Positions 8,051-51,964 of a stretch of 64,000 bases of DNA are shown here, piece by piece (within the stretch, counting starts at the first letter, position 1; each line of letters opens with the position of its first letter). The DNA is from Candidatus Kapaibacterium sp. (GTDB lineage Bacteria > Bacteroidota > Ignavibacteria > Kapaibacteriales > Kapaibacteriaceae), in contig JALHPC010000006.1 of assembly GCA_022842685.1 (NCBI GenBank), positions 26,053 to 90,052 of the forward strand, in the 5' to 3' direction. The translations under genes and the position numbers were made by a program. The notes beneath the pieces are model-generated. The model was not told the origin of the DNA. It searched no databases and was given only the letters and a program-made list of their open reading frames with translations.

Positions 8051-9550
8051 GTGAAGGTTCTCGTCATCGGCAGTGGCTTTGGTGGCTTGAGTGCAGCAAT
8101 ACGACTGCGTGCAAAGGGCTACGAGGTTACGATTGTAGAGAAGCGCGACAAGCCCGGCGGACGTGCCTACGTGTATGAGCAGGATGGCTTTGTATTCGAC
8201 GGCGGGCCAACGATCATTACTGCGCCATGGCTTATCGACGAGCTCTTCGAGCTGGGCGGAAAGCGAACCGACGATTACGTGAAGCTGGTGCGCCTAGATC
8301 CGTACTACAACGTTCGCTTCGAAGACGGCACGGTGTTTCGCTACAACGGCAATGCGCAAGACGTGATGAACGAGATTCGGCGGTTTAACCCGGCCGATGA
8401 ACGTGGGTATACAACGTTCTTTGGCAAAACGGCGAACATCTTCAAGGCCGGCTTCGACTTGATCGACCAGCCATTCACCAAGCTTACCGACATGGTAGGT
8501 GTGCTGCCTGACCTTATTCGTCTACGTTCGGATAGGTCGGTAGCGGGATTCGTGAACCGCCACATCCGCGATGAACGCCTGCGCCAAGTGTTCTCGTTTC
8601 ACCCTCTGCTGGTGGGCGGCAATCCGTTTCGTACAACGAGCATCTACGCCCTTATCCACAAACTCGAGCAGGAATGGGGCGTCTGGTTTGCCATGGGCGG
8701 TACGGGCGCGCTCGTAAACGCCTTGGTGAAGCTGTTTACCGATATGGGCGGCACTATTCGCTACAATGCCGAGGTGCAACGCATTGACGTTGTGAACGAC
8801 GGCGCAGTACCAAGAACAACCGGGGCTAGGCTGGCCGACGGCTCTACCGTTCCGGCCGACATTGTGGTGTGTAACGGCGACGTTGCCCAGGCCTATATGA
8901 CGCTTGTGCCACCGCAGTTCCGCAAGCGCAACACCAACGCGCGCTACGAGAAGATGTCGTACTCGATGTCGCTCTTCGTGATTTACTTTGGCACCAACAA
9001 GCAATACCCCGACATGGCTCATCATGAGATCTTGATGGGCCCACGCTACCGCGACCTTGTTGAAGACATTTTTACGCGGAAGCATCTTGCAGAGGACTTT
9101 TCGCTGTACCTGCATCGGCCAACAGCCACCGACCCCTCGTTGGCGCCGCCGGGCTGCGACTCGTGGTACGTGCTGTCGCCGGTGCCACACCTTGGTGGCA
9201 CCACCGATTGGAAGACCGAGGCCCCACGCTACCGCGACCGCATTATGCAGTACCTTGAAGAACGCTACATGCCCAACCTTCGGCAGCACATCGTAAGCGA
9301 AACGTATATCGATCCGCTGCACTTTCAGGGAACGCTCAACAGCTACCTTGGCAGTGCGTTTAGCGTGGAACCAACGCTTACGCAAAGCGCATGGTTTAGG
9401 CCGCACAACGTGAGCGAGGACATTCGCGGACTCTACTTTGTAGGTGCCGGCACGCACCCCGGTGCGGGCTTACCCGGCGTAATGAGCTCGGGCAAAATTG
9501 CCGCACGATGCATTGCGCAAGACTATGCTATATCCGACCCCGTGGCATAG
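8051..9550 (+). CDS. crtI: Phytoene desaturase (CrtI family)
   Basis: VKVLVIGSGFGGLSAAIRLRAKGYEVTIVEKRDKPGGRAYVY Rossmann motif. C-terminal FVGAGTHPGAGLPGVMSSGKIAARCI is typical of CrtI. GTG start just after AGGAG. The upstream ORF-track extension was rejected. Confidence 0.85.
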   Translation: MKVLVIGSGFGGLSAAIRLRAKGYEVTIVEKRDKPGGRAYVYEQDGFVFDGGPTIITAPWLIDELFELGGKRTDDYVKLVRLDPYYNVRFEDGTVFRYNGNAQDVMNEIRRFNPADERGYTTFFGKTANIFKAGFDLIDQPFTKLTDMVGVLPDLIRLRSDRSVAGFVNRHIRDERLRQVFSFHPLLVGGNPFRTTSIYALIHKLEQEWGVWFAMGGTGALVNALVKLFTDMGGTIRYNAEVQRIDVVNDGAVPRTTGARLADGSTVPADIVVCNGDVAQAYMTLVPPQFRKRNTNARYEKMSYSMSLFVIYFGTNKQYPDMAHHEILMGPRYRDLVEDIFTRKHLAEDFSLYLHRPTATDPSLAPPGCDSWYVLSPVPHLGGTTDWKTEAPRYRDRIMQYLEERYMPNLRQHIVSETYIDPLHFQGTLNSYLGSAFSVEPTLTQSAWFRPHNVSEDIRGLYFVGAGTHPGAGLPGVMSSGKIAARCIAQDYAISDPVA

Positions 9551-10161: not shown

Positions 10162-11417
10162 TGACGTCCTCTCCGCGTGTAGTACTTCGCCGCAAGCAAC
10201 GTTGGGTAGTTTGTGAGAATACCATCGAACTCGCCGTCTGTCACAAACTCGTTCATAAACACCGGATCGTCGAGCGTCCACGTAAAGCACAGGCGTTGTT
10301 CACGCTGCATTGCTTGCACTTCGTCGAGCTGCAAGCCGGCCGTCCAGCGTGGTGCCCACACCTCTGCCTCCACATCGCGAGCCCAGCGCGTACTTAGCTC
10401 GCAGATAGCTTCGACCTGACTACGCAGAGGGTGCTCCATGTAGCTTCTAGCGATTTCGGCTGTTGGCAAACCCACAAGAAAACGCAGGTCGTTGCGCCCC
10501 TTAAGTCGCGCACGCTGTTGGGCGCCAACCATTGCGTGAAGGACGCTGTCGAGCACGGCACGCTGTTTGACGTCGACCCACACTAGGCCTAGCCGACGTT
10601 GTTCCATTGTCGCGTCGAGCACTTCGTGCAGCGTAGGAATACGCTCGCCATGCACGAGTCGAGCGGCAGCGCGGATCTGCTGTGCGGTATAGTTTTCAAC
10701 CAGGCCAAGTATGTAGGCCCCTTGCACCGTGCGTGGCGTAAAGCGCTCGTCGTGGAACACAATTGGCACTCCATCACGCGTACGAACAACGTCAATCTCG
10801 ACGGCGTTGCAGCCAAGTCGAGGTGCAAGCTGAATCATCTCGACGGTATTCTCGCTTACGCCAAGTCGGTCGGAATTGCGAGCCCCTCCACGATGGCCGA
10901 TTACCCAAAAGCCCCTCAGACGAGCACGTAGGTTGGTTCGACGGCGCATAACGAAGGGTCGAACGGAACCACCCGAGGCATCCGACACGGTTCCTCGCAA
11001 TACCAGATCTTTCCCGGGATTACTTCCACGGGCTAGAGCCGTTCCGCCTTCATCTGGCAACACCGTAAGCCGCATGATGCCAATATTTGTGCCCTGAGTA
11101 AATCTCCACGTGCCAACAATCTTTACTGTGTCTCCCAACAGTCCACCGCGGAGCGAACACCAGAGTGCATTCGCCTCGCCAAGCACGCTGCCCTCGTCGC
11201 CAGACCATAGCAGAGCCACAGAGTCGGCTGCTACTCCACCTCCATCTTCAACTCGATAGACGCCGCTAAGGTGTGCAAAGGCAGCCGTATCTAGTCGCTG
11301 TACTCCACGCAACTCGGATGCTAGGTCAAGCGCTACGTCATCGATGTCAACTAACTGCTGCACACATGAAGAGCACAACAGCACAGCCACCGCCACGATG
11401 ATTACTGCCTTGATCAA
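10158..11417 (-). CDS. Lipoprotein with C-terminal glycerophosphodiester phosphodiesterase (GDPD) domain
   Basis: Lipobox LLCSSC. GDPD catalytic motifs VIGHRGG...ENT...EIDV...DG.P.V.HD. Confidence 0.75.
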   Translation of the reverse strand: MIKAVIIVAVAVLLCSSCVQQLVDIDDVALDLASELRGVQRLDTAAFAHLSGVYRVEDGGGVAADSVALLWSGDEGSVLGEANALWCSLRGGLLGDTVKIVGTWRFTQGTNIGIMRLTVLPDEGGTALARGSNPGKDLVLRGTVSDASGGSVRPFVMRRRTNLRARLRGFWVIGHRGGARNSDRLGVSENTVEMIQLAPRLGCNAVEIDVVRTRDGVPIVFHDERFTPRTVQGAYILGLVENYTAQQIRAAARLVHGERIPTLHEVLDATMEQRRLGLVWVDVKQRAVLDSVLHAMVGAQQRARLKGRNDLRFLVGLPTAEIARSYMEHPLRSQVEAICELSTRWARDVEAEVWAPRWTAGLQLDEVQAMQREQRLCFTWTLDDPVFMNEFVTDGEFDGILTNYPTLLAAKYYTRRGRQ

Positions 11418-13152: not shown

Positions 13153-13793
13153 GAAAGCACAACAACGATGCCGGCATAGGCGGCGATAATGCCAAGGTTG
13201 GGGGCTACGTCGGCAAACGAAAAATCGGCCAACGCTTGCAGCACCGACGCAGTACCAGGCAGTACTATTGGCAAGATAACAGGAACGGCAAGCACGGGCA
13301 GTAGCAGGCCGCCGGCCTGCGTACGTGCCGCAATGGCACTCATAACAGTAAGCACGGCTGCTAGCGCTGCACTACCTACAACAACACTCGACATCAGCGC
13401 TAGCGGATTACCAGCAAAGACGTTGCCCACAACCAGTAGCAACAACACGTAGGCCAGCGCATTAGCAAGTGTTGCTTGTGCAACGTTTACCAGTAGCTTG
13501 CCAAACAGAACGGCCGATGCCGAAGTTGAAAGGCGCAGATATAACCACGTGCCACGCTCCTCCTCGCGGATAAAACCACGACCTAAGCCAACGTTCGCTG
13601 TAAATGTCATAACCACCCACAGCAACCCGGCAGCCATTGGCCGCGGCACTGCTTCGTCGGCAATACTAAACGCCACAAGCATTACCGTGGTAACAACGAA
13701 TACCACCAGCGACGTAAGGCCATAGCGTGTGCGCGCTTCGCTGCGAACGTCCTTGTCGATTACTGCCCATAGGCGCGTAAGTGCCCCATTCAT
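13119..13793 (-). CDS. CcmB-like ABC-2 permease (heme exporter protein B family)
   Basis: Alignable to CcmB. GLLWVVMTF...FIREEERGTWLYLRL matches IIWVAALLSS...FRDDLQDGSLEQLML. QAGGLLLPVLAVPVILPIVL matches RGGVLLSILVLPLTIPLLIF. Confidence 0.5.
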   Translation of the reverse strand: MNGALTRLWAVIDKDVRSEARTRYGLTSLVVFVVTTVMLVAFSIADEAVPRPMAAGLLWVVMTFTANVGLGRGFIREEERGTWLYLRLSTSASAVLFGKLLVNVAQATLANALAYVLLLLVVGNVFAGNPLALMSSVVVGSAALAAVLTVMSAIAARTQAGGLLLPVLAVPVILPIVLPGTASVLQALADFSFADVAPNLGIIAAYAGIVVVLSWILFDYIWDE

Positions 13794-13822
13794 CGTGCAA
13801 AACTAGGGCATAACACAAAGCG

Positions 13823-15151
13823 TTAGATAACGCCGCGAGATTTCATCTCCACGTATCGCTGCACTGTTGCAAGGCCCATGTTCTCGGGCCGAGCATACAC
13901 GGCCATTATGCCGTGCTGACGCATTTGTGCTATCACCTCGCGCTTTTGCCATGCAAACATCTCGGCCGTTGTGCGCAGGTATACGTTGTCGGTGGTTGTA
14001 CTTGGCGTGGTACTAAGCTGCGTTACTTCGGTATTCTCGAACATCGTAACAACCACAACGTGTCTTGTAGCCAAGGCCCGCAACACTGGAAGGCGGCGCT
14101 GGAACGCGCCCATGGTTTCGATATTCGTATACACCATAAGCAGCGACCGCGTTGGCACTAGCCGCCGCAGAGATGCAAACATGACTTCGTCGTTGCTCTC
14201 AGAAAAATCGGTCGACACGGCATAAAGCGCCTCGTTAAGCATGGTCATCTGCCGCGAGCGCCTGTCGGCACGTACCGAGGTTGCCTGACGGCTGCCGTAG
14301 GCAAGCAGTCCGGCACGGTCGCCACGCACGAGCGCGGCCCGCGACAGCGCTAAGCCAGCATTCACGCTATAGTCCAGCAAGGTCATCCCCCCAAATGGTA
14401 GCTTCATCACGCGGCCAGTATCGATTACCGAATAGATGTGTTGCTCGCGTTCGTCCTGGTACAGGTTTACCATCATCTCGCCGGTGCGCGCCGTTGTCTT
14501 CCAATTCATGTTGCGCATATCGTCGCCCAACACATAGGGCTTCGCTGTTTCGTACTCCAGGGTTTGCCCAAGCTTGCGCAGACGCCGCTGACCTATGGGA
14601 ACGTTGGCATTGACGGCCGACAATTCGATGGCGCGCATTTGCATGTACGACGGATAGGTTTTTACGACGACTGCGGCGGGAATCGTAAACCGTCGTTCTA
14701 CGAGTCCCAACCATAGCGAGGCATAAATGTGAATGTCGCCAAAGGCATATTCACCGCGCTGGGTTGGTCGCACGGTATACGTTAGCACCGTGCGTTTGCC
14801 TGGCAAAACGGTGCCGTGCAGTATCAACCCTCGCTCTTGGAACTGTACTGGTAGCTCGTCGATAACGCTGCACATGAGCGCGGCATTGATGGTGGTTTCG
14901 ACATCGATCGACACGATGTTTGCATCGCCATTGCTAAGCCGTTGTGCTACCGTTCGCGAAGCCACTATGCCGCCTTTGCGGGACCACAGGGTTCCCCATT
15001 CGTAGGCAATGGCGCATGCCACAACTACCACGGCAATCCACGCAACGTGGAACAGTGCGGGAAGCACGATGCCAAGCACTGCCAAGCAGGCAATGCCAAG
15101 CACGGCCAGCATGGCGCGCGGCGTTAAGAACGATGATCGCAGTACGCTCAC
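13823..15151 (-). CDS. DUF58 domain protein (MoxR-associated, vWA-like)
   Basis: Two N-terminal TM helices followed by a DUF58-like region. Immediately downstream of a MoxR ATPase with 4-nt overlap. Confidence 0.55.
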   Translation of the reverse strand: MSVLRSSFLTPRAMLAVLGIACLAVLGIVLPALFHVAWIAVVVVACAIAYEWGTLWSRKGGIVASRTVAQRLSNGDANIVSIDVETTINAALMCSVIDELPVQFQERGLILHGTVLPGKRTVLTYTVRPTQRGEYAFGDIHIYASLWLGLVERRFTIPAAVVVKTYPSYMQMRAIELSAVNANVPIGQRRLRKLGQTLEYETAKPYVLGDDMRNMNWKTTARTGEMMVNLYQDEREQHIYSVIDTGRVMKLPFGGMTLLDYSVNAGLALSRAALVRGDRAGLLAYGSRQATSVRADRRSRQMTMLNEALYAVSTDFSESNDEVMFASLRRLVPTRSLLMVYTNIETMGAFQRRLPVLRALATRHVVVVTMFENTEVTQLSTTPSTTTDNVYLRTTAEMFAWQKREVIAQMRQHGIMAVYARPENMGLATVQRYVEMKSRGVI

Positions 15152-23226: not shown

Positions 23227-24032
23227 TTCTGCACCACAAAGGTGTGATAGTGGGATGTGGTTGGCGATACAAGCTGGAAGATGTAGACACCGCTGGAAAG
23301 ACTCCACGTGTCGGGTACAAACTCCTTGGTATACGTCCCGGCCTGAAGCTCCTCGCTTGGTAGCTCGGCGTACAACTTGCCTGCAACATCACGGATGAAG
23401 TAGCGAACGGTGCCCGCTTGCGCGATAGAATATCGAAACTCTGTGCGACTAACGACCGGATTTGGTGCGTTGCCGCTGACGCCCTCGGTAAGCGTAGGAC
23501 GCGGACCGCCTTCGGATATCCGCACAAGACCACCCTGCAACTCGACATCAGAGCGCTCGACGCCGTTCACGAGGACACGAAGCGGTCGTAGCGTGCCCTC
23601 GACGTCCGTCGTGGGAAGACCAGTAATGGTTAACATGGCAACAACACCGTCAGCAACAGCTTGCGCCGTGTTGCACTCAATGCTAAACTCACCGTCGGTG
23701 CGGCCGTTCACGACCACATTGGTCGGATCGATGGCCGGACACAGCAGCGCGGCTGCTCCGCCACCAACGGCGCCAGACGGGCGAAACGTGCTGGGCGTAA
23801 ATCCGAATATTATGCGGACGGCAGCGTTTGCCGGAACGTTGAGTGTACCCGTAATTGGCACCGAAGCGCGCTCAAGCGCCCCAACAGTGGTTACAGGAGG
23901 TATACGTATGGCGTCGGCCGCCATGGCTATGGCATGGGCGGCTACGAGGATGGCTGCGGCGGTACTGCGAATCACTGGGACACTGATAGGTAGGAACGCA
24001 ATATACGGCGGGTAGAAGAGGCAGACGGCCAA
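23223..24032 (-). CDS. Secreted protein with T9SS C-terminal sorting domain
   Basis: The C-terminus ...GVYIFQLVSPTTSHYHTFVVQK resembles Por_Secre_tail. Signal-like segment TAAAILVAAHAIAMA. Confidence 0.5.
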   Translation of the reverse strand: MAVCLFYPPYIAFLPISVPVIRSTAAAILVAAHAIAMAADAIRIPPVTTVGALERASVPITGTLNVPANAAVRIIFGFTPSTFRPSGAVGGGAAALLCPAIDPTNVVVNGRTDGEFSIECNTAQAVADGVVAMLTITGLPTTDVEGTLRPLRVLVNGVERSDVELQGGLVRISEGGPRPTLTEGVSGNAPNPVVSRTEFRYSIAQAGTVRYFIRDVAGKLYAELPSEELQAGTYTKEFVPDTWSLSSGVYIFQLVSPTTSHYHTFVVQK

Positions 24033-47775: not shown

Positions 47776-48080
47776 CAGCACGTCCCTGTGCCGAAGGCAC
47801 GTCCCTGTGCGAAGCACGTCCCTGTGCGAAGCACGTCCCTGTGCGAAGCACGTCCCTGTGCGAAGCACGTAACTGTGCGAAGCACGTAACTGTGCGAAGC
47901 ACGTAACTGTGCGAAGCACGTCCCTGTGCGAAGCACGTCACTGTGCGAAGCACGTAACTGTGCGTAGCACGTCACTGTGCGAAGCACGTAACTGTGCGAA
48001 GCACGTAACTGTGCCGAAGGCACGTCCCTGTGCCGAAGGCACGTAACTGTGCGCAGCACGTTCCTATGCGAAGCATGTCG
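47776..48080. repeat. Tandem array of about 18 copies of a 17-bp unit GCACGT(CC/AA/CA)CTGTGCGAA with occasional 18-19-bp variants
   Basis: Read directly. The unit contains the inverted repeat GCAC-N6-GTGC. Intergenic between the TPK and esterase genes. The period is not a multiple of 3, and the ORFs over it are artefacts. Confidence 0.9.
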
Positions 48081-51329: not shown

Positions 51330-51421
51330 GGCGTGCAAGTTGGCACGAACAGTGTTTCGAAGAGGGCTATTGCTGTGTTACGTCCTCGTAACGTACGGTT
51401 GACGCAGCTTTGGTGCCCCCG

Positions 51422-51464
51422 AAAAAACAAAAAAGCCCTTGAGCATTGCGCTCAAGGGCCTTTT
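51422..51464 (-). terminator. Rho-independent terminator (10-bp stem GCCCTTGAGC/GCTCAAGGGC, loop ATTGC, then TTTTTTGTTTTTT on the minus strand)
   Basis: Read directly. About 25 nt downstream of the small ORF stop. Confidence 0.8.
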
Positions 51465-51488
51465 GAGTTGCGTGGGATTTCACACGCC

Positions 51489-51608
51489 TTATGGGCATGC
51501 CTCGCAGGAGGTTGGACAGGAGTCCTGACTGACGTACATCGTAGCTGCCGTAGCGGCAGCCAGCGAGACGAGAATCGCTACTGCAAGGAATGCTTTGGAT
51601 ATCTTCAT
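51489..51608 (-). CDS. Small hydrophobic/Cys-rich peptide (39 aa): MKISKAFLAVAILVSLAAATAATMYVSQDSCPTSCEACP
   Basis: Perfect AGGAGG Shine-Dalgarno 4 nt upstream of the ATG. A strong terminator follows immediately downstream. Signal/TM-like N-terminus and 4 Cys in the last 11 residues. Confidence 0.45.
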   Translation of the reverse strand: MKISKAFLAVAILVSLAAATAATMYVSQDSCPTSCEACP

Positions 51609-51667
51609 AGAACCTCCTGTGTTATGTGGATAAAGCGGCTGATGCGAATTTACGATACACTTTTGTG

Positions 51668-51964
51668 TTAGGCAACACTGTCGTGAACCGCCCCCGTCAC
51701 AACCTGCCACGGCTGTATGGTATAGCGCTCTACCACTCCATTCTGCACGTACGGATCAAGCTCCACAAATCGCTCTATTTCGTGTAAGGGGCACCGAAAG
51801 ACTAACACGGCAGAGTCTGGCGGGTCCCCTACGGCACCTCCCAACAATAAGAACCCACGCTTGGCAAATTCATCGGTCAACGCCAAATGTTCCGGACGAT
51901 ACGGCGTGCGCTTTGTAACGTAGTCATCAACAACGTGATAGCGCAAAATGTAGTACGTGCTCAT
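51668..51964 (-). CDS. YciI-like protein
   Basis: 98 aa. MSTYYILRYHVVDDYVTKRTPYRPEHL pattern of the YciI/Dabb family. Confidence 0.55.
   Translation of the reverse strand: MSTYYILRYHVVDDYVTKRTPYRPEHLALTDEFAKRGFLLLGGAVGDPPDSAVLVFRCPLHEIERFVELDPYVQNGVVERYTIQPWQVVTGAVHDSVA

Follow-up and report, generated by a model that had tools for sequence, protein, structure and literature searches.

Apparent selection on the messenger RNA of a small, predicted exported CxxC peptide in Kapaibacteria-like bacteria

The 64,000 nucleotides (nt) of DNA analysed here, hereafter the window, come from Candidatus Kapaibacterium sp. (assembly GCA_022842685.1, contig JALHPC010000006.1, positions 26,053 to 90,052 of the forward strand) and contain, on the minus strand, a 39-codon open reading frame (ORF) with a CxxC motif near the end of its product. 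It is a real, lineage-restricted gene, predicted to encode a small exported or membrane-anchored peptide. Moreover, among three of the four lineages in which we found it (A, B and C), silent positions appear to be under direct selection: between pairs of these lineages, the proportion of synonymous differences (pS) is 0.03–0.07 in the peptide gene, against 0.48–0.79, i.e. near saturation, in the flanking genes. The explanation that we favour, with moderate confidence, is that of an exported CxxC peptide whose compact messenger RNA (mRNA) would itself be constrained, probably through occlusion of its Shine–Dalgarno (SD) sequence.

Anatomy of the transcription unit

All coordinates are positions in the window. 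The initial annotation had described a gene for a 39-aa peptide, and the 39 residues that it quoted are encoded exactly, on the minus strand. An AGGAGG placed 4 nt before the ATG was equally borne out, whereas its four cysteines in a C-x4-C-x2-C arrangement were a miscount: the peptide has three, C31, C35 and C38 (C-x3-C-x2-C). Nor had the gene been missed by annotation, as was supposed, since an identical 39-amino-acid (aa) product already figures as a ‘hypothetical protein’ in the NCBI, JGI, ENA and Logan gene calls. The following features were delineated, the promoter being of the type known from the Fibrobacterota–Chlorobiota–Bacteroidota (FCB) superphylum.

51489–51608, minus strand: coding sequence (CDS) of the 39-aa peptide, with ATG at 51608–51606 and TAA at 51491–51489; product MKISKAFLAVAILVSLAAATAATMYVSQDSCPTSCEACP
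TMYVSQDSCPTSCEACP: peptide-species type named for the product of the 39-aa gene
51611–51619, minus strand: SD region CAGGAGGUU, with AGGAGG at 51618–51613 and a spacer of 4 nt to the ATG
51673–51675, minus strand: −33 promoter element TTG, 20 nt upstream of the −7 box
51645–51652, minus strand: −7 promoter element TAAATTCG, FCB-type TAnnTTTG, the sole match of at least 5/6 near the gene on this strand
51609–51640, minus strand: predicted 5′ untranslated region (UTR) of approximately 32 nt, from promoter geometry
51505–51513, minus strand: anti-SD AACCUCCUG in codons 32–35, perfect complement of the SD region (51619–51611)
51578–51593, minus strand: 5′ strand of helix H2, codons 6–10 (GCAUUCCUUGCAG…), partner 51510–51495 in the minimum free energy (MFE) and alifold structures
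51495–51510, minus strand: 3′ strand of helix H2, codons 33–38, sharing bases with the anti-SD
51470–51485, minus strand: post-stop hairpin with an invariant stem GUGUG/CACGC of 5–6 bp
51424–51464, minus strand: intrinsic terminator, with core stem 51459–51435, A/U extension and T-run

The transcription unit is, by this predicted anatomy, autonomous and approximately 215 nt long, with its own FCB-type promoter, SD, 39-codon ORF, post-stop hairpin and strong terminator. Every one of the four lineages has the promoter motif TTG-N20-TA(A/G)(A/G/C)TT(T/C)G at a constant distance from the SD, as does a haplotype carrying the insertion of a 443-aa gene, within surroundings that are only approximately 50–60% identical; the −7 box reads TAAGTTTG in lineage B and in lineage A with the insertion, TAACTTCG in lineage C and TAGGTTTG in lineage D. 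The sigma-A consensus of Bacteroidota/Chlorobi is TTG-N17–23-TAnnTTTG (PMC6847099; bioRxiv 10.1101/172254), and the −7 box of Flavobacterium has a G at position −5 (PMC6847099). From this G and the position of the box, a transcription start is predicted near 51640. No sigma-70-type promoter was found in the scan of the region.

The 10-bp GC stem and T-run that had been noted about 25 nt after the stop codon were recovered as a G+C-rich core stem of 10 bp (51459–51435), which an A:U extension brings to 16 pairs (51464–51430), 7 of them G–C, and which is followed by TTTTTTGTTTTTT; the core begins 29 nt after the stop and the extended stem 24 nt after it. The region contains only two terminator-like sites, and these are the two strands of this hairpin. 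The peptide gene is single-copy in the 64 kb; a multi-copy repeat or mobile element was considered and dropped, the conserved block occurring once in the window.

Distribution among lineages

The peptide unit was found on at least 20 contigs, in four lineages and five different gene contexts. Lineage A comprises the window and contigs L090–L099 (L090 being NCBI contig VFQO010007061.1). Lineage B comprises L087–L089, with the peptide variants I3V and S30A, and lineage C comprises L001–L006, with I3V, S30A and T33V. Lineage D, the most distant of the four, is contig L104, which encodes a 40-aa peptide (MKISRAILAVTILVSIVAAAAVTATVYSNSGACTSCEACP) and ends 6 nt past the stop codon.

Across the four lineages the SD, the length of the spacer, the ATG and the stop codon are kept, as are the post-stop hairpin and terminator across A–C. 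AGGAGG is invariant in A–C and is reduced to GGAGG in D; the spacer always measures 4 nt but is free in sequence (TTCT, TCTC, CCGC, CCCT). Similarity between lineages starts just 5′ of the SD and stops at the terminator T-run. The 5′ UTR is moderately conserved (ATCCACATAAC…) and varies far more than the CDS. The 5-nt loop of the post-stop hairpin has seven sequences in 14 haplotypes around an invariant stem, and the terminator of A–C likewise combines an invariant stem with a variable loop.

The lineage D homologue lies at a contig end, unannotated, and was found by synteny from the neighbouring gene for a 139-aa membrane protein. There, the gene finder had skipped the peptide gene (L104:7–129, minus strand) and called an antisense ORF of 46 aa at the contig end instead, which illustrates how genes of this kind go missing from protein databases. 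Because the gene was left uncalled, protein-level searches overlooked lineage D: searches with the peptide, both word-indexed (5.8e9 proteins) and with phmmer (1.84e9 representatives), returned a single 90% cluster with three sequence variants only. A profile built from the four lineages found no further homologues, and one candidate, P0002, was rejected because its match is of low complexity. The peptide was assigned to no family in Pfam, NCBIfam, PADLOC or PHROGs. It was not found by tblastn or nhmmer in the 80 MiaB-anchored loci of GTDB species genomes, in which the closest MiaB relatives, from Kapaibacterium and Ignavibacteriota metagenome-assembled genomes, are just 66–67% identical in aa. 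A protein-pattern scan of metagenomes gave no true match among the matches listed, the DNA pattern CTCCTGYGARGCNTGYCCNTAA retrieved from metagenomes only the known VFQO010007061.1 and three chance matches, and a pattern scan of viral contigs gave 0 matches. As far as these searches reach, the peptide gene is thus known only from a few uncultured Kapaibacteria-like bacteria, with none outside the clade.

Coding signature and predicted product

That the ORF is a real small gene, as the initial annotation had held, is supported by the conservation of SD, ATG, stop, promoter and terminator across lineages, and by the comparison with lineage D. The lineage D peptide is 63% identical in aa, and its gene shows two indels, an insertion of 6 nt and a deletion of 3 nt, each in frame, with ATG and TAA kept; in this comparison, pS is 0.49, the proportion of nonsynonymous differences (pN) is 0.20, and the ratio of nonsynonymous to synonymous rates (dN/dS) is approximately 0.3. 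The amino-acid changes are conservative ones (K>R, F>I, A>T, L>I, M>V). It had been proposed that synonymous and nonsynonymous changes occurring equally often would speak against the gene. Formally, this is the pattern among A–C (dN/dS 0.66), but there it arises because almost no changes of any kind exist and not because the frame is unconstrained, and it does not extend to the comparison with D. Ka/Ks on small ORFs can thus mislead at short distance, the coding signal being visible here only with a distant, unannotated homologue.

Lineages A–C vary at three residues only (I3V, S30A, T33V), and the features that are invariant in A–D are MK.S(K/R), a hydrophobic segment of approximately 20 residues, Tyr25 and the C-terminal SCEACP. 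The suggestion of an N-terminal signal peptide or transmembrane anchor holds, as read from the sequence only: MK(I/V)S(K/R) as n-region, A(F/I)LAV(A/T)ILVS(L/I) as h-region, and an Ala/Thr-rich c-region with candidate cleavage sites AAA|T and ATA|A, which accommodates the 2-residue indel of lineage D, have the layout of a Sec signal or of an N-in anchor. The two basic residues precede the hydrophobic stretch, and the only acidic ones, D29 and E36, follow it. Under the positive-inside rule a basic flank stays in the cytoplasm, and from this charge distribution we infer an N-in/C-out topology that would place the polar tail in the periplasm. A bacterial lipoprotein was rejected, as no lipobox L-(A/S)-(G/A)-C is present and the first cysteine is residue 31, preceded by QDS or QDA.

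In the explanation that we favour, the N-terminus (MK-x-S-K/R and approximately 20 hydrophobic, Ala-rich residues) would be inserted in this orientation either as a Sec signal cleaved at an AxA site or as an uncleaved anchor. Cleavage at AAA|T or ATA|A may release a mature 17–20-mer; either way, the short tail with its invariant S-C-E-A-C-P end would face the periplasm. The working end would then be the CxxC tail, together with a third, upstream cysteine of unfixed spacing, and suggests thiol chemistry as the most likely mode of action, through soft-metal binding or disulfide exchange with a partner.

Such a kind of gene is already known, among the small envelope proteins, and the peptide is one that gene finders already call. 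The MgrB-type proteins, for instance, are likewise approximately 40–50 aa long, with an N-terminal anchor or signal and important cysteines in a short periplasmic tail, and their genes are single, lineage-restricted and transcribed on their own. However, they share no sequence similarity with the present peptide, which has a conserved C-terminal SCEACP (CxxC) and no two-component or other partner evident nearby. Conservation of silent sites, a property of the gene described here, is not a described feature of MgrB-type genes.

Conservation of silent positions

Between lineages A, B and C, the peptide gene shows 1–2 synonymous differences in 29.5 sites, versus approximately 15–20 expected (binomial P ~ 1e-6), and codons 4–29 are nucleotide-identical in 14 of 14 haplotypes. 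The transcript itself provides an internal reference, in the form of 19 free noncoding positions (the SD–ATG spacer, two hairpin loops and the linker between the hairpins). At these, 37–63% of positions differ between lineages, whereas the third positions of codons differ by 3–5% (Fisher P, 1e-3 to 5e-6). Since the free sites of the transcript have diverged, the conserved block is not simply young or recently transferred. In this 120-nt ORF, the conservation of silent sites thus exceeds that in every neighbouring gene 10–20 times, whereas the loops and spacers of its own transcript are saturated; it would be a clean case, provided by nature, of an mRNA selected for more than its protein.

Two trivial causes were set aside. 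Codon optimisation was rejected because rare codons are used (ATA, GCT three times, GTC twice, AGT), giving a CAI-like (codon adaptation) index of 0.62, below that of 12 of 12 reference genes. An overlapping ORF was dropped, as the antisense and +1 frames owe their openness solely to the conservation of the block and have no conserved start; the antisense frame extends through the terminator.

In lineage D, nucleotide identity persists only at the two ends of the ORF: over approximately 15 nt surrounding CCUUGCAG, and over the final 30 nt, which run from ACC UCC UGC through the stop codon and beyond (the last eight codons and the first bases past the stop, compared with lineage A). A decayed second copy of the peptide gene and its 3′ UTR, located after a 409-aa gene in L087 (approx. 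8290–8445), has out-of-frame deletions and broken stems, and shows what neutral decay makes of this sequence.

RNA folding and the Shine–Dalgarno sequence

Compared with dinucleotide shuffles, the full transcript has a more stable fold (z = −5.5; once the terminator is removed, z = −3.4 and −3.8), and this also holds in comparison with synonymous recodings that encode the identical peptide (z = −2.2, P ~ 0.02). Within it, the SD region CAGGAGGUU and the anti-SD AACCUCCUG are complementary over 9 bp in lineage A, 8 bp in B and 8 bp in C; only 1.5% of recodings give an SD complement of at least 9 nt, and the recoding test yields P ~ 0.015–0.03 in A and C. Pairing is possible in 96.7% of the SD/anti-SD alignment cells, versus 24–54% when the partner is slid. 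The helix belongs to the MFE structure of lineage C; its probability in A is 0.28, and in B it comes 1.3 kcal/mol above the MFE. Alternatively, the SD can pair locally with codons 2–4.

The base that follows AGGAGG is U in lineages A and B and C in lineage C, where G replaces A in each of its two alternative partners. These partners are the first bases of codons 3 (I3V) and 33 (T33V), so that pairing is preserved by two of the three polymorphisms of the peptide. In the SD/anti-SD helix of lineage C, the nucleotide changes underlying T33V turn one U–A pair into C–G, which is compensatory, and one G–C into G–U.

A second long-range helix, H2, pairs codons 6–10 with the region of codons 35–38. 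Its core, CCUUGCAG with CUGCGAGG, does not differ by a single nucleotide between the four lineages, even at silent positions, and because H2 overlaps the anti-SD, it and the SD/anti-SD helix are mutually exclusive. Two anti-SDs, one local and one distal, together with a competing helix are a published hallmark of type I toxin mRNAs (PMC6733600; PMC13000454).

In the explanation that we favour, the mRNA would itself be selected for such a compact fold, the SD being paired either with codons 2–4 or with the 9-nt anti-SD of codons 32–35, and the latter pairing would compete with H2. From this modelled structure, we infer that translation is probably held low or gated by the fold of the mRNA.

Several observations weigh against this explanation. 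On the side of the peptide, no homologue of known function came out of any of the protein and family searches, and the spacing of the first cysteine varies (C-x3-C in A–C, C-x2-C in D), which weakens the case for a rigid three-cysteine metal site. On the side of the RNA, the covariation represents a single phylogenetic event, and its score is reached by 11 of 500 shuffles. Lineage D keeps only a 5-bp core of the SD/anti-SD helix (GGAGG:CCUCC), and its fold is not unusually stable (z = −1.2 versus shuffles, −0.4 versus recodings), with six broken pairs against one compensatory change in the central hairpin. The central codons of lineage D are saturated with silent changes (11.8/17.2), so that the mid-ORF RNA constraint is lineage-specific and not universal; a co-evolving partner RNA or a lineage-specific fold may be its source. 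Besides, the ratio of D to C distances is approximately 2 in neighbouring genes but 5 (dN) and 11 (dS) in the peptide gene; calibrated on D, the similarity among A–C is too high for the gene's own rate. Finally, the 3′ UTR haplotypes of lineage A look mosaic with lineage B, and recombination therefore contributes something. Some lateral exchange among A–C on top of selection is thus likely, as far as these comparisons indicate.

Alternative explanations

Taken further, these last points would make of the gene an ordinary small exported protein without any RNA-level function, the near-identity of A–C coming from recent lateral exchange or gene conversion at a recombination-prone locus. This is unlikely, although it is the alternative that best survives. 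It would account for the saturated mid-ORF silent sites relative to D, hence for the lack of a universal silent-site constraint, as well as for the 5–11-fold distance ratio; it also fits the grading of lineage A 3′ UTR haplotypes into B (L093 combines an A-type CDS with a B-type downstream flank) and a locus flanked on either side by a hotspot of gene gain and loss. However, the SD–ATG spacer and the hairpin loop approximately 10 nt past the stop have diverged like flanking silent sites (37–63%, versus 3–5% at the third positions of the ORF's codons), so that the exchanged tract would have to coincide with the interval from ATG to stop in all three lineage pairs. The boundaries of conservation are functional boundaries, from SD to T-run, in every comparison, and flanks with 58–89% nucleotide identity are a poor substrate for homologous recombination.

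A bolder version of RNA-level selection, which we regard as quite unlikely, is that of a self-silencing peptide–RNA module, either type-I-toxin-like or a dual-function RNA pairing with targets, which would have been maintained, and have spread between related lineages, as a unit. In its toxin-like version, the signal-peptide-bearing product would be freed only after an RNA rearrangement exposes the SD. SD-led translation is in itself unusual in the Bacteroidota/Ignavibacteriota group, and such a module, if real, would to our knowledge be among the first there. Should SD occlusion hold, or an antitoxin RNA be found, toxin-style RNA gating would be extended into the FCB superphylum. The immediate value is more modest: a barely characterised, uncultured Kapaibacteria-like lineage gains a gene for a small protein, with a promoter, defined limits and a CxxC tail that does not vary.

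Membership proper in a type I toxin–antitoxin system, in which a membrane-damaging peptide is encoded by a transcript left untranslatable by SD occlusion until it is processed (as in aapA/IsoA of Helicobacter, hok/Sok, dinQ/agrB and timP/timR), seems improbable. There are nevertheless resemblances. With 39–40 aa and approximately 20 consecutive hydrophobic or Ala-rich residues, the peptide, whose membrane targeting is predicted, fits the size (at most 60 aa) and single hydrophobic segment of type I toxins. Its compact, highly folded mRNA has a stand-alone promoter and a Rho-independent terminator, its silent positions appear to matter, and two anti-SDs are available to its SD, one close by in the first codons and one far away near the 3′ end of the ORF, as in type I toxin mRNAs (PMC6733600). 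TimP offers a precedent for a toxin with a putative signal peptide (PMC13000454). Nucleotide-level conservation, a location in a variable island and an ancient tandem duplication of which one copy has decayed are also consistent with this class.

Yet no antitoxin small RNA was detected at the locus by the opposite-strand promoter and Rfam scans, although one may be encoded in trans elsewhere in the genome: there is neither an antisense or divergent promoter, nor, within the conserved block, a TAnnTTTG −7 box on the other strand, nor a sigma-70-type site. No Rfam 15 family matches anywhere in the window, the best sub-threshold hit (E = 0.86) being driven by the terminator hairpin, and no sequence similarity to type I toxins was seen. 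Further against this reading, the gene is single-copy in 64 kb and SD occlusion is weak in lineage D; the tail, moreover, is polar and Cys-rich rather than charged or amphipathic, and with its AxA sites it resembles an exported peptide more than a pore-former. Thus, membership remains unproven, and it is the mRNA architecture that would, by analogy, work like that of type I toxins. The only plus-strand match is a weak FCB-type −7-like box, TACGGTTG, at 51394–51401, with a TTG 21 nt upstream, outside the conserved block. This box is not conserved outside lineage A and would yield a very short transcript ending at the bidirectional hairpin.

Alternatively, the locus could be primarily a regulatory small RNA, non-coding or dual-function, with an incidental or secondary ORF and silent conservation imposed by target pairing. 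We consider this decidedly improbable. Dual-function RNAs such as SgrS/SgrT, RNAIII/hld and SR1/SR1P provide precedents, with transcripts of approximately 200 nt under their own promoter and terminator, peptides of approximately 25–45 aa and nucleotide conservation beyond the needs of the peptide. Here, the promoter, the approximately 215 nt and the Rho-independent terminator are typical small-RNA architecture, the conserved block coincides with the transcript, the fold is strong, and among A–C silent sites are invariant with a dN/dS of 0.66. But the pattern of change in lineage D is that of a coding sequence and not of an RNA: ATG, frame, stop and n-/h-/c-regions persist despite in-frame indels and many silent changes (dN/dS ~ 0.3), and the central hairpin is not preserved. 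The SD–ATG spacing is fixed at 4 nt while its sequence is free, no Rfam family matched, and, in contrast to the known dual-function RNAs, no target or seed region was identified.

The initial annotation had also raised a thioether peptide, i.e. a ribosomally synthesised and post-translationally modified peptide (RiPP). A RiPP precursor of lanthipeptide, sactipeptide or ranthipeptide-like type, its Cys-rich core tailored by enzymes encoded elsewhere, is very improbable. The Ser/Thr/Cys-rich C-terminal segment recalls class II lanthipeptide precursors, with a weak NCBIfam match of residues 18–34 to LchA2/BrtA2 (NF038161), but this match, the sole one to a RiPP family, is not significant (E = 0.12, with 12.8 bits where the cut-off is 26) and has no counterpart in Pfam. 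None of the five genomic contexts holds a LanB/C/M/KC enzyme, radical-SAM maturase, peptidase or ABC exporter according to Pfam, NCBIfam, PADLOC and PHROGs; the lone radical-SAM gene nearby codes for MiaB, a housekeeping tRNA enzyme; it lies on the other strand, and the lineage B context lacks it. RiPP leaders are unlike the hydrophobic export signal that forms the N-terminus here, and the candidate lanthionine donors, S30 and T33, are precisely the residues that vary (to Ala and Val).

Scarcely credible, finally, is a leader peptide with an attenuator that would control the downstream HAD hydrolase gene by stalling ribosomes on Cys, Ala or Thr codons. The ORF is indeed short, with a terminator within approximately 30 nt and the next gene on the same strand. 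However, that next gene codes for HAD in lineages A and C but for a 409-aa secreted ORFan in B, at a gap of approximately 90 to approximately 575 nt, no antiterminator alternative overlaps the 15–16-bp terminator stem, and the export-signal architecture is unlike known leader peptides.

Genomic neighbourhood

The gene for the 139-aa membrane protein always adjoins the peptide gene, and the slot between the two is hypervariable, with the following content.

Lineage C: empty
Window: YciI
L090: YciI and a 443-aa polytopic ORFan
L087: a 417-aa secreted ORFan
Lineage D: a fragmented homologue of the 417-aa gene (L104:211–940)

The YciI-like gene that the initial annotation had placed next to the peptide gene does lie directly upstream on the same strand in the window (51964–51668, minus strand; Pfam PF03795, E = 2e-9), but the association does not hold across lineages, being absent in C and replaced or supplemented elsewhere. 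Downstream, HAD and MiaB genes are found in lineages A and C, and a 409-aa paralogue of the 417-aa gene together with HtrA in B; across lineages, the gap to the downstream gene has the range given above.

In several lineage A strains, approximately 1.4 kb (L090:8575–9970) stand in place of 54 bp of the window (51639–51692). This insert carries the 443-aa polytopic membrane ORFan, without Pfam or NCBIfam family, plus its own copy of the peptide promoter, and in strains that bear it the YciI product is extended from 98 to 104 aa. A partner or maturase role for the 443-aa and 417-aa upstream genes was dropped, the two being mutually unrelated and without family.

In L087 (4749–8445), the 417-aa and 409-aa secreted ORFans flank the peptide gene and are paralogues with 49% identity. 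Taken together with the decayed peptide copy and the 417-aa fragments of lineage D, these paralogues imply an ancestral pair, of an approximately 410-aa gene and a peptide gene, that was once duplicated. The 417/409-aa family is an old neighbour, present in B and D, but a dispensable one, absent from A and C.

Repeats and a transposase were also observed around the locus. In the window, a 17-bp tandem repeat (AGCACGTCACTGTGCGA; 17.5 copies, 90% match) occupies 47777–48079, between an ORF and an esterase gene. In L090, an IS110-family transposase gene (13639–14736; DEDD_Tnp_IS110/Transposase_20) lies beside the esterase gene, at about the position of this repeat. Related short G+C-rich tandem repeats occur just past the peptide terminator in lineage C (L001, approx. 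10200–10330), and a (TG)n run is found at the post-terminator position in lineage B and in L093. Elsewhere in the window, another SD-led small ORF was noted on the plus strand (23908–24015), with AGGAGG, a spacer of 7 nt, an ATG and a product of 35 aa (MASAAMAMAWAATRMAAAVLRITGTLIGRNAIYGG).

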